Source: Magnetovibrionaceae bacterium (GTDB taxonomy: Bacteria > Pseudomonadota > Alphaproteobacteria > Rhodospirillales > JBMYSY01). Taken from it: a stretch of DNA of 64,000 bases. This document shows positions 8,531 to 55,954 of this stretch, one piece after another. The translations under genes were made by a program, and so were the position numbers. Within the stretch, counting starts at the first letter, position 1. Each line of letters opens with the position of its first letter. The notes beneath the pieces were generated by a model. The model was not told the origin of the DNA. It ran no database searches and saw nothing but the letters and a program-made list of their open reading frames with translations. Location: the NCBI GenBank assembly GCA_049603795.1, contig JBMYSY010000011.1, positions 920 through 64,919 of the forward strand, in the 5' to 3' direction.

Positions 8531-8551
8531 TACTTTTTCGTTTTTGAAAAC

Positions 8552-8588
8552 AAAAAAAGCGGCCCCGTTTCGGAAGCCGCTTTTTTTT
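8552..8588. terminator. Bidirectional rho-independent terminator between convergent cheR and ctrA
   Basis: The sequence is an A7 run, stem AGCGGC..GCCGCT with an inner CCG/CGG pairing, then a T8 run. This gives a U-tract on both strands. Confidence 0.8.
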
Positions 8589-8606
8589 CGCGTAATCGGT
8601 GAAAGG

Positions 8607-9314
8607 TCAGGCGGAGGCGGAGACCCGCGCTTCAGCCGCTTCCGGGTCGCGCAGGACGTAGCCCCGACCCCAGACGGTCTCAATGTAGTTCTCGCCTTCG
8701 GTGGCTTCGGTCAGCTTTTTGCGCAGCTTGCAGATGAAGACATCGATAATCTTCAATTCCGGCTCATCCATGCCGCCGTAGAGGTGGTTCAGGAACATTT
8801 CCTTGGTCAGCGTCGTACCTTTGCGCAGGCTCAACAGCTCCAGGATGCCGTATTCCTTGCCGGTCAGGTGGACCGAGCTTCCCTCGACCTCAACGGTGCG
8901 GGCGTCCAGGTTCACGGTCAGTTTGCCCGTTCGGATCACCGACTGGGCATGACCCTGGGACCGGCGAACAATCGCCTGAATACGGGCCAGCAGTTCCGCC
9001 TTGTTGAACGGCTTGGTGATGTAGTCGTCGGCACCGTGGCCGAGACCTTTCACCTTGTTGTCGGCCTCGGTCAGGCCCGACAGGATCAGAACCGGTGTCT
9101 GAATCCTTGAATCCCGAAGGCGGCGTAGAACCTCCATGCCGTCGATGTCCGGCAGCATCAAGTCCAGAATGATGATGTCATAGTCGTAAAGCTTGCCGAT
9201 CTCGAGCCCATCTTCCCCGAGATCGGTGGTATCAACCACCATGTTTTCCGACTTCAGCATCATCTCGACGCTTTGCCGGGTGGCGGGATCATCTTCGATG
9301 AGTAATACTCGCAC
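8607..9314 (-). CDS. ctrA: Cell-cycle/motility response regulator CtrA (OmpR family)
   Basis: It starts MRVLLIEDD (GTG start). Long stretches appear identical to Caulobacter CtrA as I remember it: [51 protein letters not shown] and [13 protein letters not shown]. Confidence 0.93.
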
Positions 9315-9330
9315 GGTCCTAACTCCAAAC

Positions 9331-9521
9331 GAATCGACTTGTCCAAAAACTTAGTCAAGTCTTAAGCATTTGTTAACCATAATTTACGTATTTTGGCACG
9401 GCGTTGTTTTCTAAGGATTATTTGAATCGCTCGATTCGTCTCAGATTCATGTAAGGACTCGCAAGTGGTTCATTTTTGCCCCCGATTCGCAAAAATAAGG
9501 CCCCGATTCGTTTGGCGATTC
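9331..9521. promoter_or_regulatory. Cluster of eight GANTC (CcrM-type methylation) sites, including four CGATTCG heptamers
   Basis: GANTC sites start at 9331, 9424, 9433, 9444, 9456, 9484, 9505 and 9517. CGATTCG starts at 9432, 9483, 9504 and 9516. The palindrome GAATCGCTCGATTC spans 9424-9437. Confidence 0.6.
9362..9380. promoter_or_regulatory. Canonical CtrA box TTAA-N7-TTAAC (TTAAGCATTTGTTAACCAT)
   Basis: TTAA lies at 9362-9365, a 7-nt spacer follows, and TTAA lies at 9373-9376. The second half extends to TTAACCAT, the extended CtrA half-site. The box sits 48-62 nt upstream of the ctrA GTG, in the ctrA-fliI divergent region. Confidence 0.6.
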
Positions 9522-9562
9522 GGTTTACCTTTAATTTGACCGCTTCAAAGAAGGATCCAGCC

Positions 9563-10963
9563 TTGGCTCTTCATGTCTCAAGCATCCTGAACGACATTGA
9601 ACGTATTGCGGATAAGCGAGTCGAAGGGCGCGTTTCCGCTGTCGTTGGGCTGATGGTCGAAGTGGCGGGCGTTGATGGGGTGCTGTCGATCGGTGATCAG
9701 TGTGTGATCCATGGACGCCATGGCGGACGGGTGGTTTGCGAATGCGTCGGGTTCCAGCGCGGCAAGGCGCTTTTGATGCCCTTTGGCTCCCTTGACGGCA
9801 TCGGGATCGGCTGCAAGGCGGAGGTTGGCCTGCAGGAACCCACGATTTCCCCCGACCACGGCTGGCTGGGCCGCGTCGTCAACGCCTTCGGTGATCCGAT
9901 TGACGGGCTGGGCCCTCTGCCGGCGGGTCGCCTCGCCTATCCCATCAAGGCGACGCCTCCATCCGCGCATGCTCGCCAGAGGGTTGGCGGCAAGGTCGAT
10001 CTGGGGGTTCGGGCGATGAACACTTTTCTGACCTGCTGCAAGGGCCAGCGGCTCGGCATCTTCGCCGGATCAGGCGTCGGCAAGTCGACGCTGCTGTCGA
10101 TGATGGCCCGTCACACGGATGCCGAAATCAACGTCATTGGCCTGATCGGTGAACGAGGGCGGGAAGCGCGGGAGTTCATCGAGGATAACCTGGGCCCGGA
10201 AGGGCTCGCGCGTTCCATCGTCATTGTGGCCACGGGGGATGAACCGCCGCTGATGCGCCGCCAGGCGGCCTATCTGACGCTCTCCGTCGCTGAATACTTC
10301 CGGGATCAGGGACACGACGTGCTCTGCATGATGGACAGCGTGACGCGCTTCGCCATGGCCCAGCGGGAAATCTCGCTCAGCGTGGGTGAGCCCCCGGCCT
10401 CGAAGGGCTATACGCCAAGCGTCTTCGCCGAACTACCGAGACTTCTTGAACGTGCCGGGCCGGGGCCGGAGGGGTCGGGCAACATCACGGGCCTGTTTAC
10501 CGTGCTCGTCGAGGGCGACGATCACAACGAGCCGATTTCGGATGCGGTACGTGGCATTCTGGACGGTCACGTCGTATTGGATCGCGACATCGCGGAGCGG
10601 GGGCGGTATCCGGCCATCAACGTTCTGCGCTCGATCAGCCGGACCATGCCGGGCTGCAATACGCCCGAACAGAACGAAGTGGTCAGCCGGGCCCGCCGCC
10701 TGATGGCGACCTATGACAACATGGCGGAATTGATCCGGCTGGGGGCCTATCGCGCGGGCTCCGATCCGGCGGTGGATGAATCGATCCAGTTCAATGCGGG
10801 CCTTGAGAGCTTCTTAACCCAATCGTCCGATGATCCTACAGGTCTCGATGCCGGATATGCCCTTCTCGCAGGTGTACTCGGCATGCCGGCCCCGCCGCCT
10901 CAACAGGTGGCGCAACAGGTGGCAGGGCCAGCTCAAGCGATGGATTTCGGCGAAGAAAGTTGA
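9563..10963 (+). CDS. fliI: Flagellum-specific ATPase FliI
   Basis: It has Walker A GSGVGKST, Walker B-like VLCMMDSVTRFA, and the F1/FliI-type body. The maximal ORF starts at TTG 9476. TTG 9563, preceded by AAGGA, gives a typical 466-aa FliI and leaves the GANTC array non-coding. The start remains uncertain. Confidence 0.9.
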   Translation: MALHVSSILNDIERIADKRVEGRVSAVVGLMVEVAGVDGVLSIGDQCVIHGRHGGRVVCECVGFQRGKALLMPFGSLDGIGIGCKAEVGLQEPTISPDHGWLGRVVNAFGDPIDGLGPLPAGRLAYPIKATPPSAHARQRVGGKVDLGVRAMNTFLTCCKGQRLGIFAGSGVGKSTLLSMMARHTDAEINVIGLIGERGREAREFIEDNLGPEGLARSIVIVATGDEPPLMRRQAAYLTLSVAEYFRDQGHDVLCMMDSVTRFAMAQREISLSVGEPPASKGYTPSVFAELPRLLERAGPGPEGSGNITGLFTVLVEGDDHNEPISDAVRGILDGHVVLDRDIAERGRYPAINVLRSISRTMPGCNTPEQNEVVSRARRLMATYDNMAELIRLGAYRAGSDPAVDESIQFNAGLESFLTQSSDDPTGLDAGYALLAGVLGMPAPPPQQVAQQVAGPAQAMDFGEES

Positions 10964-10980: not shown

Positions 10981-11409
10981 GTGGCGTCAGACTTGAAGAA
11001 CCTGATCAAACTCGCGGAATGGCGGGTGGACGAGAAGCGCCGCCGGTTGGGCGATTTTCTGCGCATGCTCGACGACCTCCATGATCGGGCACGCCGCCTG
11101 GAACAGGAAATGGTCCGCGAACAGGCGGAAGCGCTTCATGCCCCTACCGAGGCGGGTCTGTTTTACGGCACCTATGCCAACCAGGTGATCGCGCGGCGCG
11201 AGCGCATCCAGGAAACCATCCGCATGACCGAGGCCGAGGTCGATAAGGCCCGGGAAGAGCTGGCCGAAGAATTTCGGGACCTGAAGAAGTACGAACTCGC
11301 CCAGGCCGCCCGCGATGAGAAAGAAGCCCTCGAACAATCCCGCCGCGAACAGGCCTTCCTGGACGAACTCGGCATGCAGGCCCATCGGCGGAAGGCCGGT
11401 GGGTATTGA
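10981..11409 (+). CDS. fliJ: Flagellar export chaperone FliJ-like coiled-coil protein
   Basis: This 142-aa, charged, all-helical protein lies immediately downstream of fliI (GTG start). The position and composition are typical of alphaproteobacterial FliJ. Confidence 0.65.
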   Translation: MASDLKNLIKLAEWRVDEKRRRLGDFLRMLDDLHDRARRLEQEMVREQAEALHAPTEAGLFYGTYANQVIARRERIQETIRMTEAEVDKAREELAEEFRDLKKYELAQAARDEKEALEQSRREQAFLDELGMQAHRRKAGGY

Positions 11410-11497
11410 CGTCCGAGAAGAGTTTCACTACTTTTTGATGTGCAGAAAGGATTTTGCGATCAAAAGTGTTTGTTGACTTGATGAAGAGGTCCCGGAA

Positions 11498-12040
11498 ATG
11501 TCCACTACCTCAACTCGTTTCGAGCGGGCAACCAAATCGAACGGGCTTCTCGAGACCTTGTTGGACCGGTGGCGTGGGCAGTGCGAGACGTATAATGAGG
11601 ATTTTGATGACTATTCCCCAGAGCATATGAAGCATGCCCTGGAGATTGCAGCAGAGAATCCACCAGATCAGCGATACGGCATATATGTTTTGAACGATGG
11701 GGGAGAGTTTTTTGGTCTGTCTCACTTCAATCGCGCTCAGGTGAAGCGTACGACAGGCTGGACACTCAGGATTCACTGGACGTTGATGGCACCCCGCTTC
11801 GACTTCGAAGAGCAAAGTTTGGAAGATATTGCCGGAGTCACTGCGGATGTGCTCTACGCGGCTATCAAGGTTGCGGAAACCGAGTTGCCATGTGATCACA
11901 TCAAGTTTCATCTCAGCGGCATACCTGATCGACGGTACCTTTATGGCGTTGCTACTGGCCTTAAAATCGGAAGAATTTTTGGTGACGTCGAATACAGTGG
12001 TAACTGGCTGACACTCTCCGATTTGAATACAGGGCCTTGA
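11498..12040 (+). CDS. Hypothetical protein (orphan, lower-GC islet)
   Basis: The 180-aa ORF has a GAGG RBS. Its GC is visibly lower (about 49 percent by eye) than the flanks. No family was recognised. Confidence 0.55.
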   Translation: MSTTSTRFERATKSNGLLETLLDRWRGQCETYNEDFDDYSPEHMKHALEIAAENPPDQRYGIYVLNDGGEFFGLSHFNRAQVKRTTGWTLRIHWTLMAPRFDFEEQSLEDIAGVTADVLYAAIKVAETELPCDHIKFHLSGIPDRRYLYGVATGLKIGRIFGDVEYSGNWLTLSDLNTGP

Positions 12041-12185
12041 AACGACCGCATTTGCGAACTACAAAGTGTCAAGAGGAACGTTAATCTTTTGCATCTTATG
12101 ATCGAATAACGGACGATTGTGCCGCTAAAACTGCTAATAAACGGCCCCTATAGAAGGGCTGCAGCGACCGTGGGAGCCCGACACC

Positions 12186-12329
12186 ATGACTGACCAACAG
12201 CTATACTGCAAAGTCTTTGCGGCTTGCCTCAAGGCTGCCGTTGAAAACCCAGACAGCGCCCGTAACTTATCTTGGTTCCGTAAAAACATGATGGTCTGTG
12301 CGGGTGAGAAGGAAAAAAAGGCTGCCTAG
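12186..12329 (+). CDS. Possible 47-aa small ORF in the lower-GC islet
   Basis: The ATG..TAG ORF encodes MTDQQLYCKVFAACLKAAVENPDSARNLSWFRKNMMVCAGEKEKKAA. A 7-bp hairpin (AAAGGCT..AGCCTTT) follows. There is no homology evidence. Confidence 0.2.
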   Translation: MTDQQLYCKVFAACLKAAVENPDSARNLSWFRKNMMVCAGEKEKKAA

Positions 12330-12488
12330 CCGAGGAGCCTTTAGTCGAGTTCCGCCTGGAAGCTTAGGCGTATCCCGTCGGGTTAGCAGTTTCTGGCAGT
12401 TCAGGAGCCTGTCTATATAATTCGGCGTGCTGCGTAATACGCGAATGCACTACACAGATTCAACATTGCTTGAAACTTGCCGAGGACC

Positions 12489-31868: not shown

Positions 31869-32051
31869 GCCCGTCGATCCTTTTCAAAAAATCCCAGAAT
31901 TCAGAAGACTTTAGCGTCTTTCAATTGACCGGTTCCCCCTTGGCCTCGCTGTAGGCCGCCTGGGAGTTGTCAACATTAAGGAAAGGATGGTGAAGAGAAG
32001 GTTAACGGTGGGTAATTTTTGCCGGGTGCCCGAAATCCGCCGTCCGCGCAC

Positions 32052-32105: not shown

Positions 32106-32393
32106 TCAGGTGCCGCGGCGGTATTCCTTAATGCGCGTGGTGCGCAAGCCCGGCAGGCCATGGTCGTCCAGCAGTCGTTGCCAGGACAAGAATTCATCCA
32201 CGGAAAGCTTGTAGCGATCACAGGCCTCTTCGAGAGTGATGACGCCTGTGCGGACACCGTTGACCACTTCGGCCTTGCGGCGAATAACCCAGCGTTTGGT
32301 GTCGGGCGGCGGCAGGTCCTTCAAGGACCGCGAGCGGCCACCGGATCCAGTCAATACACGAAGGTTTTCGCGGAGTGTTTTACGGTCGGTCAT
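32106..32393 (-). CDS. sciP: SciP-family small CtrA-modulating transcription factor (DUF1153)
   Basis: The 95-aa protein reads LPPPDTKRWVIRRKAEVVNGVRTGVITLEEACDRYKLSVDEFLSWQRLLDDHGLPGLRTTR. This closely parallels Caulobacter SciP as I remember it. Confidence 0.85.
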   Translation of the reverse strand: MTDRKTLRENLRVLTGSGGRSRSLKDLPPPDTKRWVIRRKAEVVNGVRTGVITLEEACDRYKLSVDEFLSWQRLLDDHGLPGLRTTRIKEYRRGT

Positions 32394-32462: not shown

Positions 32463-32477
32463 TTAAAGAAACGCTAA
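32463..32477. promoter_or_regulatory. Near-consensus CtrA box (TTAA-N7-CTAA) upstream of sciP
   Basis: The sequence TTAAAGAAACGCTAA matches 7 of 8 consensus positions. It lies 70-84 nt upstream of the sciP ATG. Confidence 0.3.
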
Positions 32478-33193: not shown

Positions 33194-34996
33194 ATGCCGC
33201 AGAGCAAATCCAAACGAAAGAAGCCCAAGAAGAAGGCCCCAGGCGGTGGCACGTCGCCCAAGACCCAGCCGATGATCACGGCCAGCGCGCGCGAGTTGGA
33301 CAGCGGCCAGGGCGGGGAGGCGAAGCTGGCAGAGGCTTTGGAGGCCTTCAACGCCCAAAACTGGCGCCGGGCCCTGACCCTGCTGGGCCATTATCTGAAG
33401 GATCATCCGACCCATCTTAAAGCCAACAAGATGGTCGTCGCCGCCTGGTTCGGGGAAGCGCAGCCGCTGAAGGCCGTCCCCGCCATGCGCATCGTGGCGG
33501 AACAGGAACCGGACAACCTGAACGGGCTGATCCGACTGGCCCATGTTCTGATCGAGGCCAACGAACTGCCGGAAGCCGAGAGCTGGCTGCGAAAGGCACT
33601 GAAACTGGCGCCGGAGAACGCCACCGTGCTGCGGTCTTTGGGGGCGGTCCTGCGCGATACCGGCCAGTTGAAGGAAGCGGTAGAGATCCTGAAGCGCGGC
33701 GTCGCTATCGACCCCCGGCCCTATGATATGGAATCCGGGCTGATCTTCTGTCTCGATTTTGTCCAGGATTCGACAACCGCCGAACAGCAGGCACAGCGAA
33801 GAGCCTGGGTTGATCGCTGGGTCGTGCCCCATGTGACGCCGATGCGCCATGACCCTTCGGGCCAGGTTCCGGATCGGAAGATCCGGGTCGGATATGTCTC
33901 GGGCGATTTCCGGAACCATTCGGCGGCGCGTTGTTTCGGACCGGTCGTCCTGAACCATGACCGGGAATCCTTTGAGGTTCACCTCTATTCGGCTTCCCCC
34001 GTCTACGACGACCTCTCGCAACGTTTTCGCGCCCATGCGGATGGCTGGCATCCGGTATGGCGGCTGAAGGAACAGGAGCTGTTCAGCAAGATCCAGGAAG
34101 ACCGGATCGATATCCTGGTCGATCTTTCCGGGTTCACCCTGGGCAACCGGCTGGGAGCCTTGTCGGGGAGGCCTGCCCCGATCCAGATCACCGCCTGGGG
34201 GCATGCCCATGGCGTCGGCATGCCTTCGATTGATTTCCTGTTTTCCGATCCTGTCTGTGTGCCGGAAGAGGAACGTTCCCTGTTCCCGGAAGAAATCGCC
34301 GACCTTCCCTGCCTGATCAGCTTTGATGCACCGGCGGATGCGCATCACCCGGGTCCTCTGCCGGCCCGGACGCGCGGCTTCGTCACCTTTGGCTGTTTCA
34401 ACCGGATCGTGAAGGTGACCGACGAGAGCCTGGCGCTTTTTGTTCGCGTGTTGGACGCCGTGCCGGACAGTCGGATCGTCTTCAAGGCGGGTGATTTCAG
34501 CAAACCCGGCGTCGTGTCACATTTCCGAACCTTCTTTGCGAAGGCAGGCATTGCGGAGGACCGCGTGACCCTGCTGGGCGACACCGACCGGGCGGAGCAC
34601 CTGGCGGCCATGTCGTCGGTGGATATCGCGCTTGACCCCATCCCGCACGGTGGAGGGGTCACGACCTTCGAGACCCTCTGGCAGGGCGTGCCGGTGGTGT
34701 CGCTCTATGGCAAGTCGGTGCCGGGCCGGGTCTCTGCGGCGATCCTGACCGCCTGCGGTCTGCCGGATTGGGTGGCCGGATCGGAAGACGACTATGTGGC
34801 GCTGGCTGCCGCCAAGGCCCGGGATCGAGAAACCCTCGGGAGTCTGCGCAGTGGCCTGCGCGATCAGGTCGCGTCCTCCGATGCTGTCCGCCCCGGCGCC
34901 TACGTCGCCGCCGTCGAGGCCTCTTACCGCGCCATGTGGCGGCGATACTGCGCGACCGGCAGCCCTCGAAGCCGCCCGCGAGAAGGCCAGGTTTGA
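33194..34996 (+). CDS. TPR-repeat protein with C-terminal GT41 (OGT/SPINDLY-like) glycosyltransferase domain, paralogue 1
   Basis: N-terminal TPRs are followed by the SPINDLY-family pattern: RVGYVSGDFRNHSAA, IDILVDLSGFTLGNRL, RPAPIQITAWGH, FGCFNR, IALDPIPHGGGVTTFETLWQGVPVV. Confidence 0.85.
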   Translation: MPQSKSKRKKPKKKAPGGGTSPKTQPMITASARELDSGQGGEAKLAEALEAFNAQNWRRALTLLGHYLKDHPTHLKANKMVVAAWFGEAQPLKAVPAMRIVAEQEPDNLNGLIRLAHVLIEANELPEAESWLRKALKLAPENATVLRSLGAVLRDTGQLKEAVEILKRGVAIDPRPYDMESGLIFCLDFVQDSTTAEQQAQRRAWVDRWVVPHVTPMRHDPSGQVPDRKIRVGYVSGDFRNHSAARCFGPVVLNHDRESFEVHLYSASPVYDDLSQRFRAHADGWHPVWRLKEQELFSKIQEDRIDILVDLSGFTLGNRLGALSGRPAPIQITAWGHAHGVGMPSIDFLFSDPVCVPEEERSLFPEEIADLPCLISFDAPADAHHPGPLPARTRGFVTFGCFNRIVKVTDESLALFVRVLDAVPDSRIVFKAGDFSKPGVVSHFRTFFAKAGIAEDRVTLLGDTDRAEHLAAMSSVDIALDPIPHGGGVTTFETLWQGVPVVSLYGKSVPGRVSAAILTACGLPDWVAGSEDDYVALAAAKARDRETLGSLRSGLRDQVASSDAVRPGAYVAAVEASYRAMWRRYCATGSPRSRPREGQV

Positions 34997-36657
34997 TGAG
35001 CGATCCGGTACGAGACGCCGCCGTCGAAATCTCTCAATTGATGCAGAAGGGCGACAGCGCCGAGGCCTGTGACCGGGCCGAGTTGCTGGTCGAGGCCCAT
35101 CCCGAGAGCCGGATCGCCCGCCAGGTGGCCGCCGCTGCCGCCCTGCAGGACGAAGATCCGGAAACCGGACTGATTCATCTGCTCTGGCTGCTGAAGCGCG
35201 ATCCCGAAGACGTCGAACGGCTGCGCCAGGTGGCGACCGTGCTTCTGGATATGAAACGCATGGCAAAGGCCGAACCTTACCTGCGCCTAGCAATGGGCAA
35301 GGAGCCGAAGCGCCCGGACCTGCATATCGATCTCGCCCGTTCGCTCGCGTCACAGAAAAAACATGCCGAGGCCGCGCATCACTATCGGGTGGCGATGGAA
35401 CTGGATCCCGACAACGAGATCACGCCGGAGAACCTGATCTTTATCCTGGACTTCATCCCGGAAGAAGACACCGCCCGTCAGCAGTTGGAGCGTCGGCGTT
35501 GGTACGAACGCTTCGTCGAACCCAATGTGGAGGCAAAGACCTATGATCCGGCCGAGGCCGACCCGGACAAGCCGGTGCTTCGCATCGGTTACGTCAGTGG
35601 TGATTTCAAACTGCACTCGGCCGCCCGGATTTTCGGGCCCATGATCCGGGACTACGACCGTGAGCGGTTCGAGGTCTATTGCTATCACACCGAACCGGAC
35701 GAGGACGAAGAGACCGAACGCTACCAGGCGGCGGCAACAGAATTCCGTATGGTCAGCCAGTACGACTATGGCGGCCTGACCAATCTGATCCGCAGGGATG
35801 CCCCTGATATCCTGGTGGACCTGTCCACCTTCACCCGCGGCGGTCGGCTCGAGACCTTCGCCCGCCGAGCGGCCCCGGTGCAGATTTCCGCCTGGGGCCA
35901 TTGCCATGGGACCGGCCTGCCGACCATGGACTATCTGTTTTCGGATAAAAACTGCATTCCGGCGGAAGAGCGATCGCTGTTTTCCGAGACCATCGTCGAT
36001 CTGCCTTGCGTGATTACCTTCGCGCCCGAAGACGGCCTGCCCGATGTGTCGGATGCCCCCTTCCGGCGAAACGGATACATCACTTTCGGTAGCTTCAACC
36101 GTATGGAAAAGCTGACAGCCGAATCCCTGGCGCTCTGGTGCCGGGTGCTGGCGGCGGTGCCGGGGTCGAGGCTGCTGTTGAAGGCGGGTGGGTTCGAGAC
36201 GGCTGTCGAGCGGGACCGGGTCTGGCAGGCTCTCCAGTCCGCCGGACTGGATCCCAATCGGGTGACCATGGCCGGCAGCACGGAACGCGACATCCATCTG
36301 ACCGCCATGAGCGACTGCGACATCGGTCTGGACACCTATCCCCATGGCGGCGGCATGACCACCTGCGAGATGCTCTGGATGGGCGTACCCGTGATCGCTT
36401 TGCGCGGCCGGGCGGTCGCGGGGCGGGTCTCGTCTTCGGTTTTGAGCACCCTCGGACTGGATGACCTTGTCGCGGATCATCCCGACACTTACGTTTCCGC
36501 TGCACAGGCCCTGGCGGCAGATCCTGATCGCCTTTTGGACTTGCGCCGTGAAATGCGGTCACGGATGACCACTTCGCCGCTTCTGGGTATCGAGCGCTAT
36601 GTGCGCGCGGTGGAAGACATCTACTTCAGGCTCTGGCGCGACTGGGCCGCGGGTTGA
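34996..36657 (+). CDS. TPR-repeat protein with GT41-like glycosyltransferase domain, paralogue 2
   Basis: ATG 34996 overlaps the upstream stop (TGATG). It shows the same motif series: RIGYVSGDFKLHSAA, PDILVDLSTFTRGGRL, RAAPVQISAWGH, FGSFNR, IGLDTYPHGGGMTTCEMLWMGVPV. Confidence 0.85.
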   Translation: MSDPVRDAAVEISQLMQKGDSAEACDRAELLVEAHPESRIARQVAAAAALQDEDPETGLIHLLWLLKRDPEDVERLRQVATVLLDMKRMAKAEPYLRLAMGKEPKRPDLHIDLARSLASQKKHAEAAHHYRVAMELDPDNEITPENLIFILDFIPEEDTARQQLERRRWYERFVEPNVEAKTYDPAEADPDKPVLRIGYVSGDFKLHSAARIFGPMIRDYDRERFEVYCYHTEPDEDEETERYQAAATEFRMVSQYDYGGLTNLIRRDAPDILVDLSTFTRGGRLETFARRAAPVQISAWGHCHGTGLPTMDYLFSDKNCIPAEERSLFSETIVDLPCVITFAPEDGLPDVSDAPFRRNGYITFGSFNRMEKLTAESLALWCRVLAAVPGSRLLLKAGGFETAVERDRVWQALQSAGLDPNRVTMAGSTERDIHLTAMSDCDIGLDTYPHGGGMTTCEMLWMGVPVIALRGRAVAGRVSSSVLSTLGLDDLVADHPDTYVSAAQALAADPDRLLDLRREMRSRMTTSPLLGIERYVRAVEDIYFRLWRDWAAG

Positions 36658-36685
36658 CGACAAAAACAAGGAAAAGAGACCGATC

Positions 36686-37453
36686 ATGAGCGACCAGGCA
36701 CCCCTGAACCGGGCGGAACGACGCAGGCGCGAACGCGAGGCCCGCAGGCTGGCGAAGCGCGACCAGGTGCCGCTCAAGGTGCTCTATCAGGATGCCATGC
36801 GCTTTCTCCAGGGCGGCGAGTTGGACCAGGCCGAAGCCCTGTTCCGGGATTTGTTGGACAAACAGCCGGGAGACCCGGGCCTGAACCAGATGCTCGGCAT
36901 TACCATGCTGCAAGCGGGCCGCTATGAAGAGGCACTGGAATGCTTTGACGAGGTCTTGGCCGTCGATCCGGGCTCTTTCGCCGTGATCGAAAACAAGGGC
37001 ATCACGCTGAAGGAACTAGGACGCCTGGAAGAGGCCAAGGTCTTGTTCGAGAAGGGCTTGGAAATTCGCCCTGATTCGACCGAAGCCCAGAACAATCTCG
37101 GCACCGCCCTGCACGATCTGGGTGATTTGGAAGGGGCGGGAGAAGCCTACCGACGCGCGTTGAAAGGGGCCTGGGGCTATGCCGACGCGCACTACAATCT
37201 CGGCCGCCTCTGTCGTGAACAAGGAGAGCCGGAAAAGGCCCTGGCCAGTCTCCACGAGGCTCTTCGCACCAAGCCCGATTGGATCGACGCCGGTATGGAG
37301 GTCGCGCGATCCCTGGCCGATCTCGGCCGTTTCGAGGTGGCCTTGGGCGAAATCGAAAAATGGTGTGAACGAGCCCCGGAGCACCAGCCCGTTCTGGATT
37401 TGCGCGATGAGATCAAACAGCGGGCAGAGGCACCGTCTACCGTTTTGAATTAG
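36686..37453 (+). CDS. TPR-repeat protein (no catalytic domain)
   Basis: The 255-aa protein from ATG 36686 has a basic N-terminus (RAERRRREREARRLAKR) followed by about six TPR units. Confidence 0.75.
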   Translation: MSDQAPLNRAERRRREREARRLAKRDQVPLKVLYQDAMRFLQGGELDQAEALFRDLLDKQPGDPGLNQMLGITMLQAGRYEEALECFDEVLAVDPGSFAVIENKGITLKELGRLEEAKVLFEKGLEIRPDSTEAQNNLGTALHDLGDLEGAGEAYRRALKGAWGYADAHYNLGRLCREQGEPEKALASLHEALRTKPDWIDAGMEVARSLADLGRFEVALGEIEKWCERAPEHQPVLDLRDEIKQRAEAPSTVLN

Positions 37454-43088: not shown

Positions 43089-43299
43089 TTTGTTTTGGTG
43101 AGGTTAAGGTGCTGTTTTTATGTATTTATTTTGGATTCCCGCCAGCGGCTATTGGGTTTTTTCCCTTGCCGCCCGGCAATAATTGCAGGGTCTGCCGGTC
43201 ACGATTTTCCGGGTTGTGCCGGAAATCGGCCGTCTGGCGTATACTCCTGGCAACGGATTCGGTGCCGGGTCCTCCGGCAAACAGGCCAGAAGAAAACCG

Positions 43300-44265
43300 A
43301 TGAGATTTCTGATTTGCGGGCTCGGCTCCATCGGACGGCGGCACTTGCAGCTGGTCCGTTCCCGCTTTCCCGGCGATGTCCCTCTGGTTCTGCGCCGGGC
43401 CGAGACCTTTGGGGATGACACATCAGAAGCCGAAGTGGTCTTTTCTCTCGATCAGGCCATTGCCGGAAAACCCCAAGCGGCGATCATCGCGACCCCGGCA
43501 CCTTTCCATGTGGAAGCCGCCCGCCGCCTGCTTGAAGCCCAGATCACCTGCCTGATCGAGAAGCCCTTGAGCCATCAACTGAGCGTACTTTCTCCCGCCT
43601 TGCCAGAGACCGCGCCCGCCCGTGTCGCCTATTGTCTGAGGTTTCATCCGGTGGTGCGCTGCGTAATGGATAACCTGGCAAAGGTGGGCAGGCCGCAATC
43701 CTTGCGCCTTCGGGTTGGTCAGCATTTGTCCCAATGGCGCCCGGGCAGTGATTGGCGCTCCGGCGTATCCGCCCGGAAGGATCTGGGCGGTGGGGTGTTG
43801 CGCGAACTCAGCCACGAAATCGATCTTGCCCTCTTGATTGCCCGCCAGTTCGGTCTGGGAGACCGGCCCGGCGTCCAGGCGGAGCTGACAAAGGGGGGGC
43901 CGCTCGGCCTTGAGGTCGAGGAGGCGGCCAGCCTTCTGCTCGACTTCGACGGGATGCGCGCCGGGGTAGACCTGGATTTTCACGCCGACCCACCGGTGCG
44001 CCTCGGCGCGGTCGAAGGAACGTACGGCAGCCTGCACTGGGATATGATCAGCTGCCGGGTCGCCTTTACCGATCCAAGCGGCGTCACGAAGGCCCTCAGC
44101 CTGCCCGAGGGCGACATGTACGCTGACCAACTGGAAGACTTCCTGGGCCTGATCGGCGGCGGCACTTCTGGCGCAGCGGACTTGTCAGAAGCGACGGCCG
44201 TGCTCAGGATCATCGAAGCCGCCGAGGCCTCAGGGGTGAAAGGCCCGATCAAGGAAACACCATGA
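43300..44265 (+). CDS. Gfo/Idh/MocA-family NAD(P)-dependent oxidoreductase (sugar pathway)
   Basis: ATG 43300 gives MRFLICGLGSIGRRH, a Rossmann N-terminus. The protein is 321 aa. Its stop overlaps the start of the downstream cytidylyltransferase gene. Confidence 0.75.
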   Translation: MRFLICGLGSIGRRHLQLVRSRFPGDVPLVLRRAETFGDDTSEAEVVFSLDQAIAGKPQAAIIATPAPFHVEAARRLLEAQITCLIEKPLSHQLSVLSPALPETAPARVAYCLRFHPVVRCVMDNLAKVGRPQSLRLRVGQHLSQWRPGSDWRSGVSARKDLGGGVLRELSHEIDLALLIARQFGLGDRPGVQAELTKGGPLGLEVEEAASLLLDFDGMRAGVDLDFHADPPVRLGAVEGTYGSLHWDMISCRVAFTDPSGVTKALSLPEGDMYADQLEDFLGLIGGGTSGAADLSEATAVLRIIEAAEASGVKGPIKETP

Positions 44266-44948
44266 CCGTTACCGCCTTCATCTTTGCCCGTGGTGGCTCG
44301 AAAGGAGTTCCGGGAAAAAACATCCGCCCCCTGGCCGGGCGATCCCTGATCGCGCGGGCGGTGGATTGCGCCAAGGGTGTACCGGCGATCAAGCGGGTTG
44401 TCCTGTCGACCGATGATCCGGCCCTGGCCGAAGAGGGCGAGCGGGCCGGGGCGGAGGTGCCGTTTCTGCGCCCCGCCGAACTGGCGGCGGACGACGCGCC
44501 GGAATGGCTCGCCTGGCGTCATGCGTTGCAGGCCTGCCCGGACACCAGCCTGTTCGTCTCCGTTCCGCCCACGGCACCGCTCCGGGCACCGCAGGATGTC
44601 TCGGCCTGCCTGGATCGCTATGCCGAAGGCGATGTGGACGTCGTCATCACGGCCATGCCCGCCAAGCGTCATCCGGCTTTCAACATGGTGCGCCTGGATG
44701 ATGCCGGTCTCGCTGGCCTGGCTCAGCCGATGGAAAAGATCATCCGCCGCCAGGATGCCCCCGCGCTCTTTGACATGACCACGGTCTGCTATGTTGCTGA
44801 TCCGGGCTTCGTGAAGCTTAAAATGGGCCTCTTCGAAGGGCGGGTCGGCATGGTCGAGGTGCCGGAGGAACGTGCCCTGGATATCGATACACCGCTCGAC
44901 TGGCAAATCGCCGAGGCTCTGATCGTTGCGAAAGAGGATGCTGCATGA
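44262..44948 (+). CDS. Acylneuraminate (nonulosonic acid) cytidylyltransferase, NeuA/LegF/PseF/PtmB-like
   Basis: The N-terminus AFIFARGGSKGVPGKNIRPLAGRSLI is the CTP_transf_3 signature. The protein is 228 aa. Confidence 0.85.
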   Translation: MTVTAFIFARGGSKGVPGKNIRPLAGRSLIARAVDCAKGVPAIKRVVLSTDDPALAEEGERAGAEVPFLRPAELAADDAPEWLAWRHALQACPDTSLFVSVPPTAPLRAPQDVSACLDRYAEGDVDVVITAMPAKRHPAFNMVRLDDAGLAGLAQPMEKIIRRQDAPALFDMTTVCYVADPGFVKLKMGLFEGRVGMVEVPEERALDIDTPLDWQIAEALIVAKEDAA

Positions 44949-45718
44949 TGCCGCCTAAACTACCCAAGGGCTTCGATCTGTCCGGGCGCGTCGTCCTGGT
45001 CACCGGCGGGGCGGGACACCTGGGCCGATCAACCGTTGGCTTTTTCGAAGACCTGGGTGCCACGGTCTGTGTGGCTGATCGGACGTCGGCCGAAGGCCTG
45101 GGGTCTTTCGGCTTCACGGTGGATCTCGAGGACGAAGCCGCAACACGAGCCCTGCCCACCCAGGTGGTCGAGGCCTGCGCACGGCTCGACATCATTGTCG
45201 CCAATGCGGCCTTTGTGGGCACGAGCGATCTTGACGGCTGGGCGGTGCCTTTCGAACAGCAAAGCCTGGAGACCTGGCGGCGCGCGGTCGAAGTCAACCT
45301 GACGTCCGTCTTCAACCTGGTCCAGGCTGCAACCCCGCACCTGAAGGCTTCAGGGCAGGGAGCGGTTGTCCTGGTCTCGTCGATCTATGGTGCCCACGGG
45401 CCGGATTGGGGTCTCTACGAGGGCACGACCCTTGGAAATCCGGCAGCCTATGGTGCCTCCAAGGGGGGACTGGAACAGCTTTGCCGCTGGCTGGCGACAA
45501 CACTGGCCCCCGACATCCGCGTCAATGCCGTTCGTCCGGGCGGCATTGAACGTGGACAGGACCCCGCCTTTCAGGGGCGCTACTGCGAAAAAGTGCCCAT
45601 GGGCCGCATGGCGGTCGAGGCCGATGTGGCCGCGGCCATCGGTTTTCTGGCGAGTGATCTGGCTGGCTATATCACGGGCCAGGTGCTGGCGGTGGACGGA
45701 GGATGGAGCGCCTGGTAA
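44945..45718 (+). CDS. SDR-family oxidoreductase (PtmA-like position next to the cytidylyltransferase)
   Basis: It shows VTGGAGHLG, the YGASKGG catalytic motif, and RVNAVRPG. It overlaps the upstream gene by 4 nt. Confidence 0.85.
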   Translation: MMPPKLPKGFDLSGRVVLVTGGAGHLGRSTVGFFEDLGATVCVADRTSAEGLGSFGFTVDLEDEAATRALPTQVVEACARLDIIVANAAFVGTSDLDGWAVPFEQQSLETWRRAVEVNLTSVFNLVQAATPHLKASGQGAVVLVSSIYGAHGPDWGLYEGTTLGNPAAYGASKGGLEQLCRWLATTLAPDIRVNAVRPGGIERGQDPAFQGRYCEKVPMGRMAVEADVAAAIGFLASDLAGYITGQVLAVDGGWSAW

Positions 45719-45739
45719 CGGGCCGGACAGCCGCATCTT

Positions 45740-46897
45740 ATGACCATCGAACGGATCATCCTTGTCACCCACAATGTGCCGAACCACTTTCACCCCCGTC
45801 TGGTGCGGGACCTGGGCGCGGCTTTTGAAGGCTTGGGATTTGAGACCCAGGTTTTCCTGCCGGCCATCGACGGGTCCGATGCCGCACCTTTTCTCCAGGC
45901 CTTGGCGGAAGGGGCCAAAGCCGGACCGGAGAAGACCCTGTTGGTCGACGTCAATGCGCGGGTCCGATTGCCCGATGCCGAACCGTTCAGGCGGTTTTCC
46001 ATCATTATCGATCACGCCTATCAGCATGTAGAGCGTCTGCGCGCGTTGCCGGACCAAGCCGTTGTCGGCTTCATGGACAGCGACAGTCCGGCTTTTCTCA
46101 GCAAGCTTGGAATCAACAGAAGCCATATTCGCCTGCACCATGCGGCATCGGTCACGCCCGAGCCGCCGATGCCGATCCCCGAACGCGAAATCGATATTCT
46201 GTTTCCGGGAAGGCTGGAACGTCAGCACGCTCGCGATGCTTTCCAGGCCCATCTGGCGGAAGCGCCCCCTCCCGTCGCCCGGGCGACCTTGGAATTTGCT
46301 GATCGCCTGGTGGCCGGGCAGGAGACCTCGGAGGCCTTTCCTGCGGCCTTTTCGGCGCAAGGGATCGGGCTGGAGCAGTTGGACGATGAAAGCCTCTTTC
46401 AGGTGGGGCAGATGGCCTATGGCTACGCGGAGGCTCACCTGCGTTACCGGGTGTTGACGGCGCTGGAGGGGCTTCCTGTTACTGTCATCGGGCAGGTTTC
46501 GCGGGACTTCTTTTCCAGGCCTCCCGGCGGCTTCCGGTTTCTCGGGCCGCAATCCTTCGATCAGGTGGTCGAGGCCATGGGGCGGTCGAAAATCTGTTTG
46601 AACCTGCTGGGCGTGAACCCTTTGTCCAGCCATGAGCGGATGTTCTACGCCAGTGCCGCCGGGGCCGTGCTGGCGACCGATGGCAATCTCTTTGTCCAAG
46701 AGACCTACCGGGACGGCCATTCCTGTGCCGTGATCTCGCCAGAGTCCGCCCGCTCGAAAGTGGAAGCTCTCTTGGCGGAGCCGGAAAAGGCCGGGGCCAT
46801 CGCCGCGACCGGGCGAGCCCTGGTGGCTTCCGCTCACAGTTGGACCCACCGGGCCAGAGATATTCTTGCCGCTTGCGGCGTCGCGGTTTCAGCCTGA
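45740..46897 (+). CDS. Hypothetical protein with CgeB/GT1-like C-terminal region
   Basis: In this 385-aa protein the C-terminal third (ICLNLLGVNPLSSHERMFYASAAGAVLATD..AEPEKAGAIAATGRALV..HSWTHRA) resembles CgeB-type glycosyltransferase tails. The assignment is weak. Confidence 0.45.
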   Translation: MTIERIILVTHNVPNHFHPRLVRDLGAAFEGLGFETQVFLPAIDGSDAAPFLQALAEGAKAGPEKTLLVDVNARVRLPDAEPFRRFSIIIDHAYQHVERLRALPDQAVVGFMDSDSPAFLSKLGINRSHIRLHHAASVTPEPPMPIPEREIDILFPGRLERQHARDAFQAHLAEAPPPVARATLEFADRLVAGQETSEAFPAAFSAQGIGLEQLDDESLFQVGQMAYGYAEAHLRYRVLTALEGLPVTVIGQVSRDFFSRPPGGFRFLGPQSFDQVVEAMGRSKICLNLLGVNPLSSHERMFYASAAGAVLATDGNLFVQETYRDGHSCAVISPESARSKVEALLAEPEKAGAIAATGRALVASAHSWTHRARDILAACGVAVSA

Positions 46898-49075
46898 GCC
46901 TGAGGCGGATATCTGACGGTAGAGCGCGCGCAATTTGGTATCGAAATCCCTCGCGAATCCTGCGCTGTCGCATACGGGCGAAGCCACGAAGCGTTCCCTC
47001 AATCCCTTCCGGGCTTCGGCCAGAGTATCCTTGTCCCGCCCGAGAGCGACGGCCTTGGCCACGAAGTCGGCCTTGTCTTCCGCGATCCATTCGGCCAGCC
47101 CGGCATGGTACAGGTGGCTGGCGGCATGGCGGCTGACGAAGCGCCTGCCCTTCCAGGCAATCACCGGGACCCCCATCCAAAGCGCCTCGCAGGCCGTCAC
47201 ACCGGCGGAATAGGGGGTCGAATCGAGCGCGACGTCAATCTGGTCATATGCCCCGATGAAGGCATGATGGCCGGCCCCCGGGATCAAGGTGATGCGGTCT
47301 TCTGAAAGGCCCAGGGCAGCGAGCCGGTCGAGAAAGGCCCGCGCGATGTCGCGCTGATCGAAACCGGGGGAGTTCAGCACCAATCGGCTGTCCGGCAGAG
47401 TGTTCAGAATCTCGGCAAAGGCTTCGAGGCAGCGGGGCGACAGCTTGAAGCTGGCACTGAAACAACCGAAGGTCAGCGGCCCGCCCGACAGAAGACTTCC
47501 CCTGGAGGGCAGAAGCGGCGTGTGGTCCGGTCCATAGGCCGGGGGGCGGAAGCAGGTATGGTCACCGCCCAGCCGGATCACCCGTTCCGAATAGAGCCCG
47601 TCATCGGCTTCCGGCGATTGGATGGCATCCCCGATGAAAGCGTCCACGGCGTCCAGGCACGTTGTCGAGACGGCATCCATCCAGACGGCCTGAACCGGCG
47701 CGGGGCGGCGCGCCAGGAGATCCAGGCTATTGCCGCGCACATGGCCGTCCATCTCGACCAGCACGTCGATCCCCGCGGCCCTGACAGTTTCGGCGCGGGC
47801 CTCCAGGCTCATCCCCGCCAGGTCGAAAAACCGCGTCGCGTGCCGCTCGAAGACGGGGGTCCAGCCATCGGGTTTGGGCGTGGTCGAAAAGAGAACGATG
47901 TCGGTCCTGGTCTGGTCCCAGGCCTGGAGCGGGCCCAAAAACAGTGACATGTGGGCATATTCGCGAAAACCACTGGAAAGAAAGCCGATGGTGAACCGGT
48001 TGCCCTCTTCCAGTTCCCGCATCGGTGGCCGGTCGGGGGTTGCCGCGTTCAGGGGTTCTGCCCGCCTTGTCCTTGGTCGAAGGCGCTCCTCCGGGCCGCA
48101 GTCCTGGGCATAGAGCTGGCAGGAAATGAAGGTGTCGAGAAGCGCCGTCTGTTCAGGCTTCAAAGCCGCCGCCCGCTCCAGATCGCTCAAAGCCTCATCG
48201 GCAAGTCCCAGGGCAAAGCGGCCCATGCCCCGGTTGTAGAGAGCGTCGGCGTTATCGGGTTCGATCCGGAGCACGTCTTCCCAGAGCCGCATCGCCTCGC
48301 CCAGCCGTCCCGCGGCTTGCAGGCATTCGCCCAACCGGACGCGGGGGGCCGTGAGCCAGGGCTGCAACTCGACGGCCTGAACTTGGTGGTGCAGGGCACG
48401 TTCGGGGTCGTTCAGGGCCATGTGGGCTTCGGCGGCGAGGCCTTGTATTTCGCCGCTTTCGGGCTTTTGGGCGACCAGGGTTTCGGCTTCCGTCAGGGCT
48501 TCCCGGCCCCGGCCCAACTGGATCAAGGCCAGGGCCAGATTGCGCCGCGCCTCCTGGAACCCGGGGTCCTGGTCGAGCGCCCGGTTCAAAACCGAAAGCG
48601 CCTCATCTGCGCGCTGCTGGGCGACCAGCAATCCGCCCAACCCGGACATCAGGGCCGGATCGCCGGGCGCGGCCTGGAGAGCCTGCCGGTAGAGGCCTTC
48701 TGCCGCTGTCCGGTCGCCCGCCTGCCAGCACCAGAAGGCCAGGGGGCCCAGAACCCGGGGATCCTCTGGCCGGAGCAGGCGCGCGCGTTTCAGGGCTTCG
48801 CCTGAAACAGCCATGTCCCCGGCGGCCAGGGCGATTGTTCCAAGGTTGGTCAGGATGTCCGGATCACGGGGTTTGAGCTGCGCCGCCCGTCCCAGCAGCA
48901 GGCGGGCGGTTTTGGCATCCCCCGCAGCATGGCGGACAAGGCCGCGAAGATGATGCGCCTCGGCGAGGTCAGGGGTCTCGCGCAGCAGGTCGTCCAGCAG
49001 CGAGTCGGCCTCCGTCAGTTCGCCCTGCTGAAAAGCCTGTGCCGCTCGGGCAAGGACGGTCCCTGCTTCCGTCAC
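46889..49075 (-). CDS. TPR-repeat protein with GT41-like glycosyltransferase domain, paralogue 3
   Basis: The 728-aa protein has about ten TPRs followed by FTIGFLSSGFREYAHM, IDVLVEMDGHVRGNSL, RPAPVQAVWM, FGCFSA and VALDSTPYSAGVTACEALWMGVPV. Confidence 0.8.
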   Translation of the reverse strand: MTEAGTVLARAAQAFQQGELTEADSLLDDLLRETPDLAEAHHLRGLVRHAAGDAKTARLLLGRAAQLKPRDPDILTNLGTIALAAGDMAVSGEALKRARLLRPEDPRVLGPLAFWCWQAGDRTAAEGLYRQALQAAPGDPALMSGLGGLLVAQQRADEALSVLNRALDQDPGFQEARRNLALALIQLGRGREALTEAETLVAQKPESGEIQGLAAEAHMALNDPERALHHQVQAVELQPWLTAPRVRLGECLQAAGRLGEAMRLWEDVLRIEPDNADALYNRGMGRFALGLADEALSDLERAAALKPEQTALLDTFISCQLYAQDCGPEERLRPRTRRAEPLNAATPDRPPMRELEEGNRFTIGFLSSGFREYAHMSLFLGPLQAWDQTRTDIVLFSTTPKPDGWTPVFERHATRFFDLAGMSLEARAETVRAAGIDVLVEMDGHVRGNSLDLLARRPAPVQAVWMDAVSTTCLDAVDAFIGDAIQSPEADDGLYSERVIRLGGDHTCFRPPAYGPDHTPLLPSRGSLLSGGPLTFGCFSASFKLSPRCLEAFAEILNTLPDSRLVLNSPGFDQRDIARAFLDRLAALGLSEDRITLIPGAGHHAFIGAYDQIDVALDSTPYSAGVTACEALWMGVPVIAWKGRRFVSRHAASHLYHAGLAEWIAEDKADFVAKAVALGRDKDTLAEARKGLRERFVASPVCDSAGFARDFDTKLRALYRQISASGSG

Positions 49076-49905
49076 GGGGTAGCTCCGCCGAACGCCAGGT
49101 CTGCCCGGTAGCGTGCCAAGATGGCCTGGTTGATGTCTTCGTATCCCGGATAGTCATATTGGTGAATGACAGCGCTGATCGATCCGTCCCGGTTCACGAT
49201 GAAGCCATCGTTGCGCAGGCTGAGGTCCGCCCGTGGAACCAGGCCCAGGGTGTTGACCAGTTTCTGATTCGGCACCAGGACCGCCCCTGGGACGATCCCC
49301 TGGTGGACGATCATCAAATGCGTCGCCTGATCAATGCCCGGCATGAACAGGCTGTCGGGGTTCAGGTGCTCGGCGAGTTTCAGGGTCGCCGAGACATGGG
49401 CGCGCATCCCCAGCGCTGATCCCAGGATCGTGCCGCCACAGAAGATCGCCTTGGCCTCCAGACGCCGCAGAGCCGCTTCGCCAAACCCGGCCCGTACCCA
49501 GTCGCGGTTCGATTCCGATTGGCCGATCAGGCGTCGACCCTCTTCGGCGAAGTGATAGAGCGGAACAGACAGATCGACGGCGAAGGGATCGGACTGGAAA
49601 ACCACATCTCGGGTGTCGCAGTGTAGAAAGTAGTCGTAGGACCGTCCCCGGTCGCTGTCCAAAAATGCCGCAAGCTTGTAGTGTCGCGCCATATGGGGGC
49701 AGCAGGGTGCAGGTTCCGGCATCTGGAACGGTTCCCAGTCGATCCGCCAGGTCTCAAGAAGCTTCTGCGTGCGCGCGTCGGGCGCGGGGTAGTCGCAAAA
49801 AAGCAGGCAGTCGCCCAGATAGCCTGCCCGGCGCAGCGAGATCACGAAGGGGGCGAGCTTGTCCGCATTGTAGCCAAGCGCAGCACCGACAATCAGCGTC
49901 TTCAT
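49072..49905 (-). CDS. Hypothetical protein (278 aa) co-transcribed with TPR-GT41 paralogue 3
   Basis: ATG 49905 gives MKTLIVGAALGYNADKLAPFVISL. Its stop overlaps the downstream start by 4 nt. No family was recognised. Confidence 0.55.
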   Translation of the reverse strand: MKTLIVGAALGYNADKLAPFVISLRRAGYLGDCLLFCDYPAPDARTQKLLETWRIDWEPFQMPEPAPCCPHMARHYKLAAFLDSDRGRSYDYFLHCDTRDVVFQSDPFAVDLSVPLYHFAEEGRRLIGQSESNRDWVRAGFGEAALRRLEAKAIFCGGTILGSALGMRAHVSATLKLAEHLNPDSLFMPGIDQATHLMIVHQGIVPGAVLVPNQKLVNTLGLVPRADLSLRNDGFIVNRDGSISAVIHQYDYPGYEDINQAILARYRADLAFGGATP

Positions 49906-50063
49906 AGCCGAACCACAGTCTGTCTCACCAGGCACACCTGTCTTTATAAACGCTGGACAAGGGGAATCCCGCTCTCTAACACTCTCAACCCTAGACTTAG
50001 ACCGCTGGTCAGTGTTCCCAAAGCCTATCCTGCCCACCTTCCACAAAAACAGGCAAGCCAACC

Positions 50064-51559: not shown

Positions 51560-51580
51560 GCCCGAGGAGAGGATCGGAAC

Positions 51581-53744: not shown

Positions 53745-53839
53745 GCTTTGTTAACCTTAGTGGGTTCTATTGCCTGGAAGGACGCTCTTATCCCATGGGG
53801 TAGGTGCTTGCGACACTTGATGCCAGGAAGGCCGAGGCC

Positions 53840-54754: not shown

Positions 54755-54810
54755 AGCCTGACCTTTCGCTCTCTGATTAACGCTCTCTGGTTGATGCTTT
54801 TTGGGCCTTT

Positions 54811-54843
54811 GGGGTCGATACTGTGATGTGTCGGCCCCTTTTT
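54811..54843 (+). terminator. Rho-independent terminator after flagellin 1
   Basis: The hairpin is GGGGTCGA-12 nt-TCGGCCCC, with one G-U pair, followed by a T5 run. Confidence 0.65.
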
Positions 54844-55017
54844 GTGCCAGAGCGAACGTGACCGGCGTCACAAAGGATGCGTTAGGGCCGCCAAGTGCTC
54901 TCACGAGGCCGAAAAAAGAAGATGATTTTTGTGGCGAAACGAAATTTAGCCTGCTAATATCTTGGCCGCGTGAGAAGCACGCATGAATGGTGACCATCCT
55001 AGAAAGGGATTCGTGTT

Positions 55018-55932: not shown

Positions 55933-55954
55933 GTCTAGGGTTCGCCTGATATGG

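Follow-up and report, generated by a model that had tools for sequence, protein, structure and literature searches.

Why is the short stretch of DNA between two divergent genes, ctrA and fliI, so densely packed with GANTC, the CcrM motif? The locus lies in a 64,000-nucleotide stretch of the genome of a Magnetovibrionaceae bacterium (order Rhodospirillales; contig JBMYSY010000011.1, positions 920 to 64,919), which we call the window and along which all positions below are counted. Control of ctrA by GANTC methylation together with GcrA is a textbook feature of Caulobacter. Judged from its sequence, the ctrA-fliI gap has a somewhat better than even chance of being a CcrM/GcrA-type, methylation-sensitive, CtrA-autoregulated divergent control region, with fliI-fliJ probably under its control as well. 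This is an extreme case of a known mode of ctrA control, without a new principle or system. The genes concerned, and the gap between them, are as follows:

8607 to 9314, minus strand: ctrA, a response regulator of 235 aa with a GTG start (NCBIfam NF045991 CtrA, 417.5 bits; cut-off 350)
9315 to 9562: ctrA-fliI divergent intergenic region, 248 bp, 42% G+C (window 61%)
9563 to 10963, plus strand: fliI, 466 aa with a TTG start (FliI clade 3, TIGR03498, 644.8 bits; cut-off 587)
10981 to 11409, plus strand: fliJ, 142 aa (TIGR02473, 47.8 bits, just below the cut-off of 50.45)

Eight GANTC sites in the ctrA-fliI gap

How many sites does the gap hold, and how are they arranged? A motif scan of the window found eight, and it reproduced exactly every position given in an earlier sequence-only reading of this DNA, which had drawn attention to the cluster:

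9331 to 9335: GANTC site 1, 21 nt upstream of the ctrA start and CGATTCG when read in the ctrA sense
9424 to 9428: GANTC site 2, directly upstream of a conserved AATAAT (-10-like, ctrA sense)
9433 to 9437: GANTC site 3, CGATTCG on the plus strand, in inverted repeat with site 2
9444 to 9448: GANTC site 4, AGATTCA, which abuts or overlaps the -35-like CTGAGA of a candidate ctrA-sense promoter
9456 to 9460: GANTC site 5, GGACTCG
9484 to 9488: GANTC site 6, in copy 1 of CCCCGATTCG and flanked by an 8-nt inverted repeat, ATTTTTGC/GCAAAAAT
9505 to 9509: GANTC site 7, in copy 2 of CCCCGATTCG and within CGATTCGTTTGG, the inverted copy of a ctrA-proximal 12-mer
9517 to 9521: GANTC site 8, CGATTCGGT, 42 nt before the fliI start
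9325 to 9336 and 9504 to 9515: left arm CCAAACGAATCG and right arm CGATTCGTTTGG of a perfect 12-nt inverted repeat

CGATTCG is the context of five of the eight sites; the remaining three are flanked differently. Four of these heptamers are on the plus strand (9432, 9483, 9504, and 9516), where the sequence-only reading had placed them; the fifth, missing from its list, is on the minus strand (CGAATCG at 9330). At one end of the gap, site 1 sits just upstream of the GGAG of ctrA; at the other, 42-79 nt separate the three fliI-proximal CGATTCG sites from the fliI start. The repeat reported earlier with a 21-bp offset, CCCGATTCG at 9481 and 9502, is present, and its full exact extent is the 10-mer CCCCGATTCG at 9480 and 9501. 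A supposed palindrome, GAATCGCTCGATTC (9424-9437), proved to be an inverted repeat but not a perfect one (12 of 14 positions), its 6-nt arms flanking a nonpalindromic CT center. Through the 12-nt inverted repeat, ctrA and fliI each have the same 12-mer, CGATTCGTTTGG, upstream in the sense direction; it has no further copy in the 64 kb, and L082, the closest relative by FliI, has the ctrA-proximal copy only. Two further GANTC sites, 8 bp apart, lie inside ctrA itself (9101-9113), in the receiver-domain Asp-Ser and Arg-Ile-Gln codons.

Could a gap of this size and composition hold so many sites by chance? Local base composition predicts 0.67 GANTC in the 191 bp from the first site to the last, close to the rough figure of 0.7 in the sequence-only reading, and 0.89 in the 248-bp gap. 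The observed density is 32/kb, against 2.29/kb in the other intergenic DNA of the window (5.7 kb), the comparison that reading had proposed and that we made within the window, and 1.72/kb in coding DNA. The Poisson probability of eight or more sites is 4.4e-6 if the rate is taken from local composition and 1.6e-7 with that of the other intergenic DNA. Elsewhere in the 64 kb no 191-bp stretch has more than three sites, and the gap is the sole GANTC outlier among some 37 intergenic regions. For palindromes matched in composition (TCNGA, GTNAC, CTNAG, CANTG, and others), the counts in the gap are zero to three. The flanks are unusual as well: five of the eight sites in the gap have the CGATTCG context, and 5 of the 113 in the rest of the window do (Fisher p = 6e-5).

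Across the window as a whole, the trend is the reverse. A first-order Markov model predicts 321 GANTC sites and 121 are observed (observed/expected 0.38), which makes GANTC the most depleted of the 16 palindrome classes of the form xxNyy. Overall depletion with intergenic tolerance has been described in CcrM-bearing Alphaproteobacteria (Gonzalez 2014), and the depletion seen here may be taken as an indirect sign of a GANTC-specific methyltransferase in this genome.

Conservation of the sites in relatives

Is the cluster shared with related bacteria? An exact-protein search for the CtrA of the window returned no match, and the closest CtrA in the database is 87% identical; the best matches, at that identity, are proteins of Rhodospirillales metagenome-assembled genomes. 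These relatives have the ctrA-fliI-fliJ arrangement in common, most of them with cheR-cheB and a CheY-like gene beyond ctrA, and here and there other Alphaproteobacteria also have ctrA and fliI as a divergent pair. L082 (FliI 82% identical) has a gap of 217 bp with six GANTC sites. A global alignment of the two gaps, at 56% identity, contains three fully conserved blocks: CGATTCAAATAATCCT, 16 nt that comprise GANTC site 2 and the -10-like hexamer; GTAAATTATGGTTAACAA, the CtrA-box region; and TCGATTCGTTTGGAG, a GANTC together with a Shine-Dalgarno sequence. The block around site 1, tcGATTCgtttggag, is identical in L082. Half of the sites in the window's gap (four of eight) align with a GANTC in L082, compared with about 0.8 expected at 56% identity (p ~0.005). 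Two of the aligned sites, the fliI-proximal sites 7 and 8, differ from their L082 counterparts in the central base (GAATC versus GATTC) and keep the flanking C and G. Retention of the flanks with a change of the central N is what would be expected if GANTC itself were under selection. We also considered that this pair had been gained independently in opposite orientation and dropped the idea, since homologous sites that differ in their central N are the simpler explanation.

Further afield, the picture is more mixed. Averaged over eight relative lineages, the gap holds 11 GANTC/kb, versus 1.3-3.1/kb in their flanks. The most persistent site is a GANTC located 10-32 nt before the ctrA start, present in seven of the lineages that we compared (L082, L204, L208, L210, L213, L217, and L219). 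The comparison of orthologous upstream regions that the sequence-only reading had called for thus gives a divided answer: the ctrA-proximal site and a modest enrichment are kept, while the dense array is not broadly conserved, with zero to six sites per relative.

Some observations from this comparison stand apart. Upstream of the conserved -10 block, the window has four extra GANTC (9438-9500) where L082 (2840-2870) instead has a CtrA-box-like TTAAC-N6-TAAA, so that CtrA input at the distal promoter may perhaps have been exchanged for methylation input between the two. A seemingly close relative, P0001/L081, which looked like a near-identical CtrA with an upstream extension, was rejected because its DNA does not match. 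A metagenome scan with the conserved 16-mer GTAAATTATGGTTAAC returned 120 loci, none of which encodes CtrA or FliI; these are chance matches.

GANTC upstream of ctrA across Alphaproteobacteria

Is an excess of GANTC upstream of ctrA peculiar to this lineage? To the window we added a sample of 60 nonredundant other alphaproteobacterial ctrA loci, in which the 300 bp upstream of ctrA were compared with the flanks. GANTC occurs at 6.1/kb upstream and 1.66/kb in the flanks, a ratio of 3.68. This ratio is the highest among 16 palindrome classes, above pure A/T motifs (TANTA, 2.77) and controls of the same composition (0.83 to 1.45). Individual upstream regions carry zero to seven sites in the 60 loci, and the eight of the window are the maximum. 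Sites in the extended context YGAKTCK are modestly enriched upstream (45 of 110 versus 169 of 588; p = 0.013).

These numbers agree in kind with published surveys. Up to five or six CcrM motifs have been counted upstream of ctrA in Sphingomonadales and Caulobacterales, GANTC is found in 65% of Rhodospirillales ctrA promoters, and ctrA, gcrA, and ccrM are reported in 72-82% of Rhodospirillales genomes (Tomasch 2021); sites of this kind have also been catalogued by Brilli 2010.

CtrA boxes and candidate promoters

What else does the gap contain? Besides the GANTC sites, its features are a run of CtrA-box-like sequences and three candidate promoters, the positions of which are predictions:

9351 to 9387: three overlapping CtrA-box-like sites in 11-bp phase, TTAG-N7-TTAA-N7-TTAA-N7-TTAC
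9348 to 9376, minus strand: candidate ctrA proximal (P2-like) promoter, TTAACA, 17 nt, TAAGTT (consensus scan 8/12)
9417 to 9444, minus strand: candidate ctrA distal (P1-like) promoter, CTGAGA, 16 nt, AATAAT (9/12 match)
9393 to 9421, plus strand: the sole sigma-70-like candidate toward fliI, TTGGCA, 17 nt, GATTAT (weak)

A perfect TTAA-N7-TTAA occurs just once in the 64 kb, as the central box (9362-9376). Together with the boxes on either side of it, at 9351 and 9373 and with one mismatch each, it makes up four half-sites in 11-bp phase, and three of the seven matches in the window with at most one mismatch fall in this gap. These boxes, the only recognizable protein sites in the gap, overlap no GANTC.

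The proximal ctrA candidate has its -35 element inside the CtrA boxes and a predicted start near 9341, relative to which GANTC site 1 would lie at about +7 to +11; its architecture recurs in L082 (TTAACA, 17 nt, TAGTGT). For the distal candidate, the predicted start is near 9410 and sites 2-4, falling between its -35 and -10 elements, would lie at about -38 to -14; its -10 block is conserved in L082. The fliI-sense candidate has a -35 element that is not conserved in L082. Its -10 hexamer and that of the distal ctrA candidate share 9417-9421, and RNA polymerase binding in the two directions would therefore be mutually exclusive. The presence of a sigma-54 activator gene in the window led us to consider a sigma-54 promoter at TGGCAC (9394) as well; it was rejected, since the -12 element has no match within two mismatches and the sequence is not conserved in L082.

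A proposed methylation-sensitive control region

How might these elements work together? We read the gap as a CcrM/GcrA-type region because its anatomy parallels that of Caulobacter ctrA P1/P2. A CcrM-type N6-adenine methyltransferase would methylate the GANTC cluster, and a GcrA-type sigma-70 cofactor would read it. The GcrA-preferred context is YGAKTCK (Haakonsen 2015, PMC4647560), which CGATTCG fits, so that five of the eight sites would offer a high-affinity GcrA context. In direct GcrA targets, the Caulobacter ctrA among them, such sites are located near -20 or between +2 and +30 (Haakonsen 2015, PMC4647560). When methylated, the sites at 9424-9448, 9331, and 9484-9517 would raise GcrA occupancy and open-complex formation, and promoter output may follow the alternation between full methylation and hemimethylation once the replication fork has passed. 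Control would next pass to CtrA, acting at its boxes in the manner of Caulobacter ctrA P1/P2, with autoregulation arising from the overlap of the phased boxes (9351-9387) with the -35 element of the candidate proximal ctrA promoter. For this scheme, we infer that the genome encodes CcrM and GcrA, that the sites are methylated, and in which direction regulation acts.

The epigenetic control of ctrA, fliI, or both that the sequence-only reading had suggested thus gains indirect support from four sides, namely the L082 alignment, the clade-wide enrichment, the GcrA context, and the depletion of GANTC in the window, but its two proteins did not turn up: a DPPY-motif scan and Pfam scans of most predicted open reading frames (ORFs) found neither ccrM nor gcrA in the 64 kb. 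Other points also weigh against methylation-sensitive control. The candidate promoters are weak consensus matches (8-9 of 12), and local duplication of the 10-mer CCCCGATTCG accounts for part of the GANTC excess. The eight relative lineages, at 85-87% CtrA identity, carry 6, 3, 3, 3, 2, 1, 1, and 0 sites; the dense array, by this comparison of sequences, appears specific to the lineage of the window and L082, and the modest enrichment general. From the literature, GcrA control of ctrA has been predicted only in Caulobacterales and Sphingomonadales, and no preference for YGAKTCK was found in Brevundimonas (Adhikari 2021), so that a GcrA from Rhodospirillales may not share the extended motif. 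A Caulobacter ctrA promoter that cannot be methylated gave no abnormal phenotype in a cited paper, and the physiological weight of such control may therefore be small.

A more ambitious version of methylation-sensitive control would have the lineage of the window and L082 independently rewiring both ctrA and fliI-fliJ to dense methylation control, with the methylation of sites 2-4 setting the direction of RNA polymerase. We regard this as a long shot.

Alternative explanations

Might the cluster serve something other than GcrA? One alternative is a protected, hypomethylated patch, in which an AT-preferring protein (MucR/Ros-like or another nucleoid-associated repressor) competes with the methyltransferase and the methylation pattern acts as a switch. 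The gap is AT-rich at 42% G+C in a 61% G+C window, A/T tracts flank sites in it (e.g., ATTTTTGC/GCAAAAAT around 9484), and grouped methylation sites are a typical feature of competition switches; Ardissone and colleagues reportedly described, in 2016, a hypomethylation of GANTC in Caulobacter and Sinorhizobium that depends on MucR. Pfam scans of most ORFs, however, identified no MucR-like gene in the window, nor was a MucR-like binding motif identified there; the CtrA boxes, as noted, leave every GANTC uncovered, and such a patch would not require the sites to have the best GcrA context. We consider it unlikely. The sequence-only reading had raised a second possibility, a factor of its own recognizing CGATTCG. 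In this case the heptamer, or an extended CGATTCGKYT, would be the operator of a methylation-independent regulator that coordinates ctrA and fliI. There are five identical heptamers, four of which share CGATTCG-K-Y-T, and the occurrence of CGATTCGTTTGG in sense upstream of both genes has a chance of about 0.01 given five copies. Yet the start-to-start spacings are irregular (102, 51, 21, and 12 bp) with mixed orientation and neither a dyad nor a fixed direct-repeat geometry, the flanks differ at three of the eight sites, and none of the five other CGATTCG/CGAATCG copies in the window is intergenic. L082 speaks against an operator twice, since the central base is flipped (A versus T) at the aligned fliI-proximal pair and the fliI-side 12-mer is missing. 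The published GcrA preference already accounts for the motif, and with a known reader at hand, the additional factor is unneeded and, in our view, improbable.

Alternatively, the cluster could lack a function and reflect local duplication and drift in an AT-rich spacer that tolerates GANTC. The duplicated 10-mer CCCCGATTCG, the range of zero to six sites in relatives, and the dispensability of the ctrA methylation site in Caulobacter would all suit such an origin. It fits poorly, however, with a probability of about 1e-7 to 4e-6, with the lack of any comparable cluster in the 5.7 kb of other intergenic DNA, with the alignment of four of the eight sites to L082 sites despite 56% identity elsewhere, and with an enrichment upstream of ctrA in 60 loci that is specific to GANTC; we give drift little credence. 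A role at the RNA level, with CGAUUCGUUUGG in both mRNA leaders as a shared target of a small RNA or RNA-binding protein, seems highly improbable. The 12-mer does lie in sense orientation for both ctrA and fliI, and the ctrA copy abuts the Shine-Dalgarno sequence and is kept in L082. However, L082 lacks the fliI-side copy, an Rfam search of 9200-9700 gave no match, and a target of this kind would cover just two of the eight sites and assumes that both copies are transcribed.

The fliI start and the surrounding flagellar island

Where does fliI begin, and hence how long is the gap? The FliI reading frame is open back to a TTG at 9476. The TTG at 9563 is homologous to the fliI starts of five relatives (L082, L204, L208, L210, and L214); in all five, in-frame stops occur no more than about 10 codons upstream, and in the window an AAGGA Shine-Dalgarno sequence precedes it by 7 nt. 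G+C content at third codon positions (GC3) is 0.55 in the 29-codon extension versus 0.73 in fliI. On the strength of the upstream stops in the five relatives and the low GC3, we rejected a coding N-terminal extension from TTG 9476. With fliI starting at TTG 9563, the intergenic region is 9315-9562. The sequence-only reading had also argued for a start downstream of TTG 9476; its conclusion was right, although the evidence for it is homology, not the density of sites. The false extension (9476-9562) reads PPIRKNKAPIRLAIR, in which the repeated PIR is CCGATTCG in frame, and gene callers could over-extend fliI at this locus.

In position and size, fliJ agrees with the PF02050 FliJ genes of relatives. 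Downstream of it, in 11410-12476, is a 180-aa ORF (11498-12040, plus strand) with no Pfam or NCBIfam match, which failed the GC3 filter of our rough gene map; the ORF carries three GANTC sites (11656, 11770, and 11835), and the genes that relatives have in its place are different ones. On the other side of the locus, between the convergent cheR and ctrA, a G+C-rich hairpin lies between an A-run and a T-run (aaaaaaagcggccccgtttcggaagccgctttttttt, 8540-8590) and looks like a bidirectional intrinsic terminator.

The window is a chemotaxis and flagellar island. It contains cheA, a gene for a CheY-like receiver, cheB, cheR, flhA, the sigma-54 activator gene, and motA, and further fliN, fliG, fliF, a DUF1153 gene, hook-related genes (FlgE/F/G-type, FlgD, and FliK), two flagellins, flaF, and Maf/glycosylation genes. 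The DUF1153 protein (95 aa; 32106-32393, minus strand) adjoins fliF and belongs to a family that we take to be that of the CtrA inhibitor SciP. The gaps on either side of its gene have one-mismatch CtrA-box-like sites (31991-32005 and 32463-32477) and no GANTC. A flagellin-modification block (34768-37453 and 43183-62807) surrounds the two flagellin genes (53804-54754 and 55018-55932) and flaF; it encodes several GT41/TPR proteins, a Maf-family protein, and nucleotide-sugar biosynthesis enzymes (a dehydratase, a DegT aminotransferase, and a cytidylyltransferase).

Significance and comparison with known systems

What does this locus add? As an instance of a known control mode, it is an incremental addition. 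As to how far GANTC/GcrA control of ctrA reaches into the early-branching Alphaproteobacteria, one comparative study predicted it for Caulobacterales and Sphingomonadales only (Adhikari 2021). Here, a Rhodospirillales lineage has the densest GANTC cluster upstream of ctrA in our sample, beside conserved CtrA boxes and a divergent flagellar operon. It is thus a natural test case for whether the link from CcrM/GcrA to ctrA is ancestral or was repeatedly acquired, whether the number of GANTC sites matters, and whether a flagellar gene can share such control.

The nearest parallel is Caulobacter ctrA, which has a methylation-sensitive, GcrA-dependent P1 and a CtrA-activated P2, with CtrA repressing P1 (Tomasch 2021). 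Common to both loci are GANTC of high-ranked GcrA context close to a ctrA promoter, CtrA boxes of the form TTAA-N7-TTAA, and, by prediction in the window, a two-promoter layout in which the boxes lie downstream of the distal promoter and over the -35 element of the proximal one. In the gap, the distal candidate is studded with GANTC, and one more GANTC lies in the proximal leader. Descriptions of Caulobacter P1 center on one GANTC, whereas the gap has eight in 248 bp, five of them CGATTCG. Unlike its Caulobacter counterpart, the region is shared with a divergent fliI-fliJ, and its host is an uncultured member of the Rhodospirillales, known here from sequence alone.

The surveyed GANTC-rich upstream regions of ctrA (Tomasch 2021; Brilli 2010) resemble the gap in having multiple CcrM motifs within 300 bp upstream of the gene, although they reach five or six sites (Tomasch 2021) and the gap reaches eight. 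GcrA-dependent sigma-70 promoters such as those of mipZ and cckA (Haakonsen 2015) are similar in their YGAKTCK context and their multiple sites; going by the candidate promoters, positions in the gap would likewise fall near -20 and within +2 to +30. The gap has more sites than promoters of the mipZ/cckA type, and its positions are relative to predicted starts. More distant are the enterobacterial switches pap and agn43, where GATC sites are overlapped by Lrp or OxyR and a competing protein is needed. They share with the gap the packing of several methyltransferase target sites into a short regulatory region; they differ from it in methyltransferase and motif, and in the gap the CtrA boxes do not overlap GANTC.

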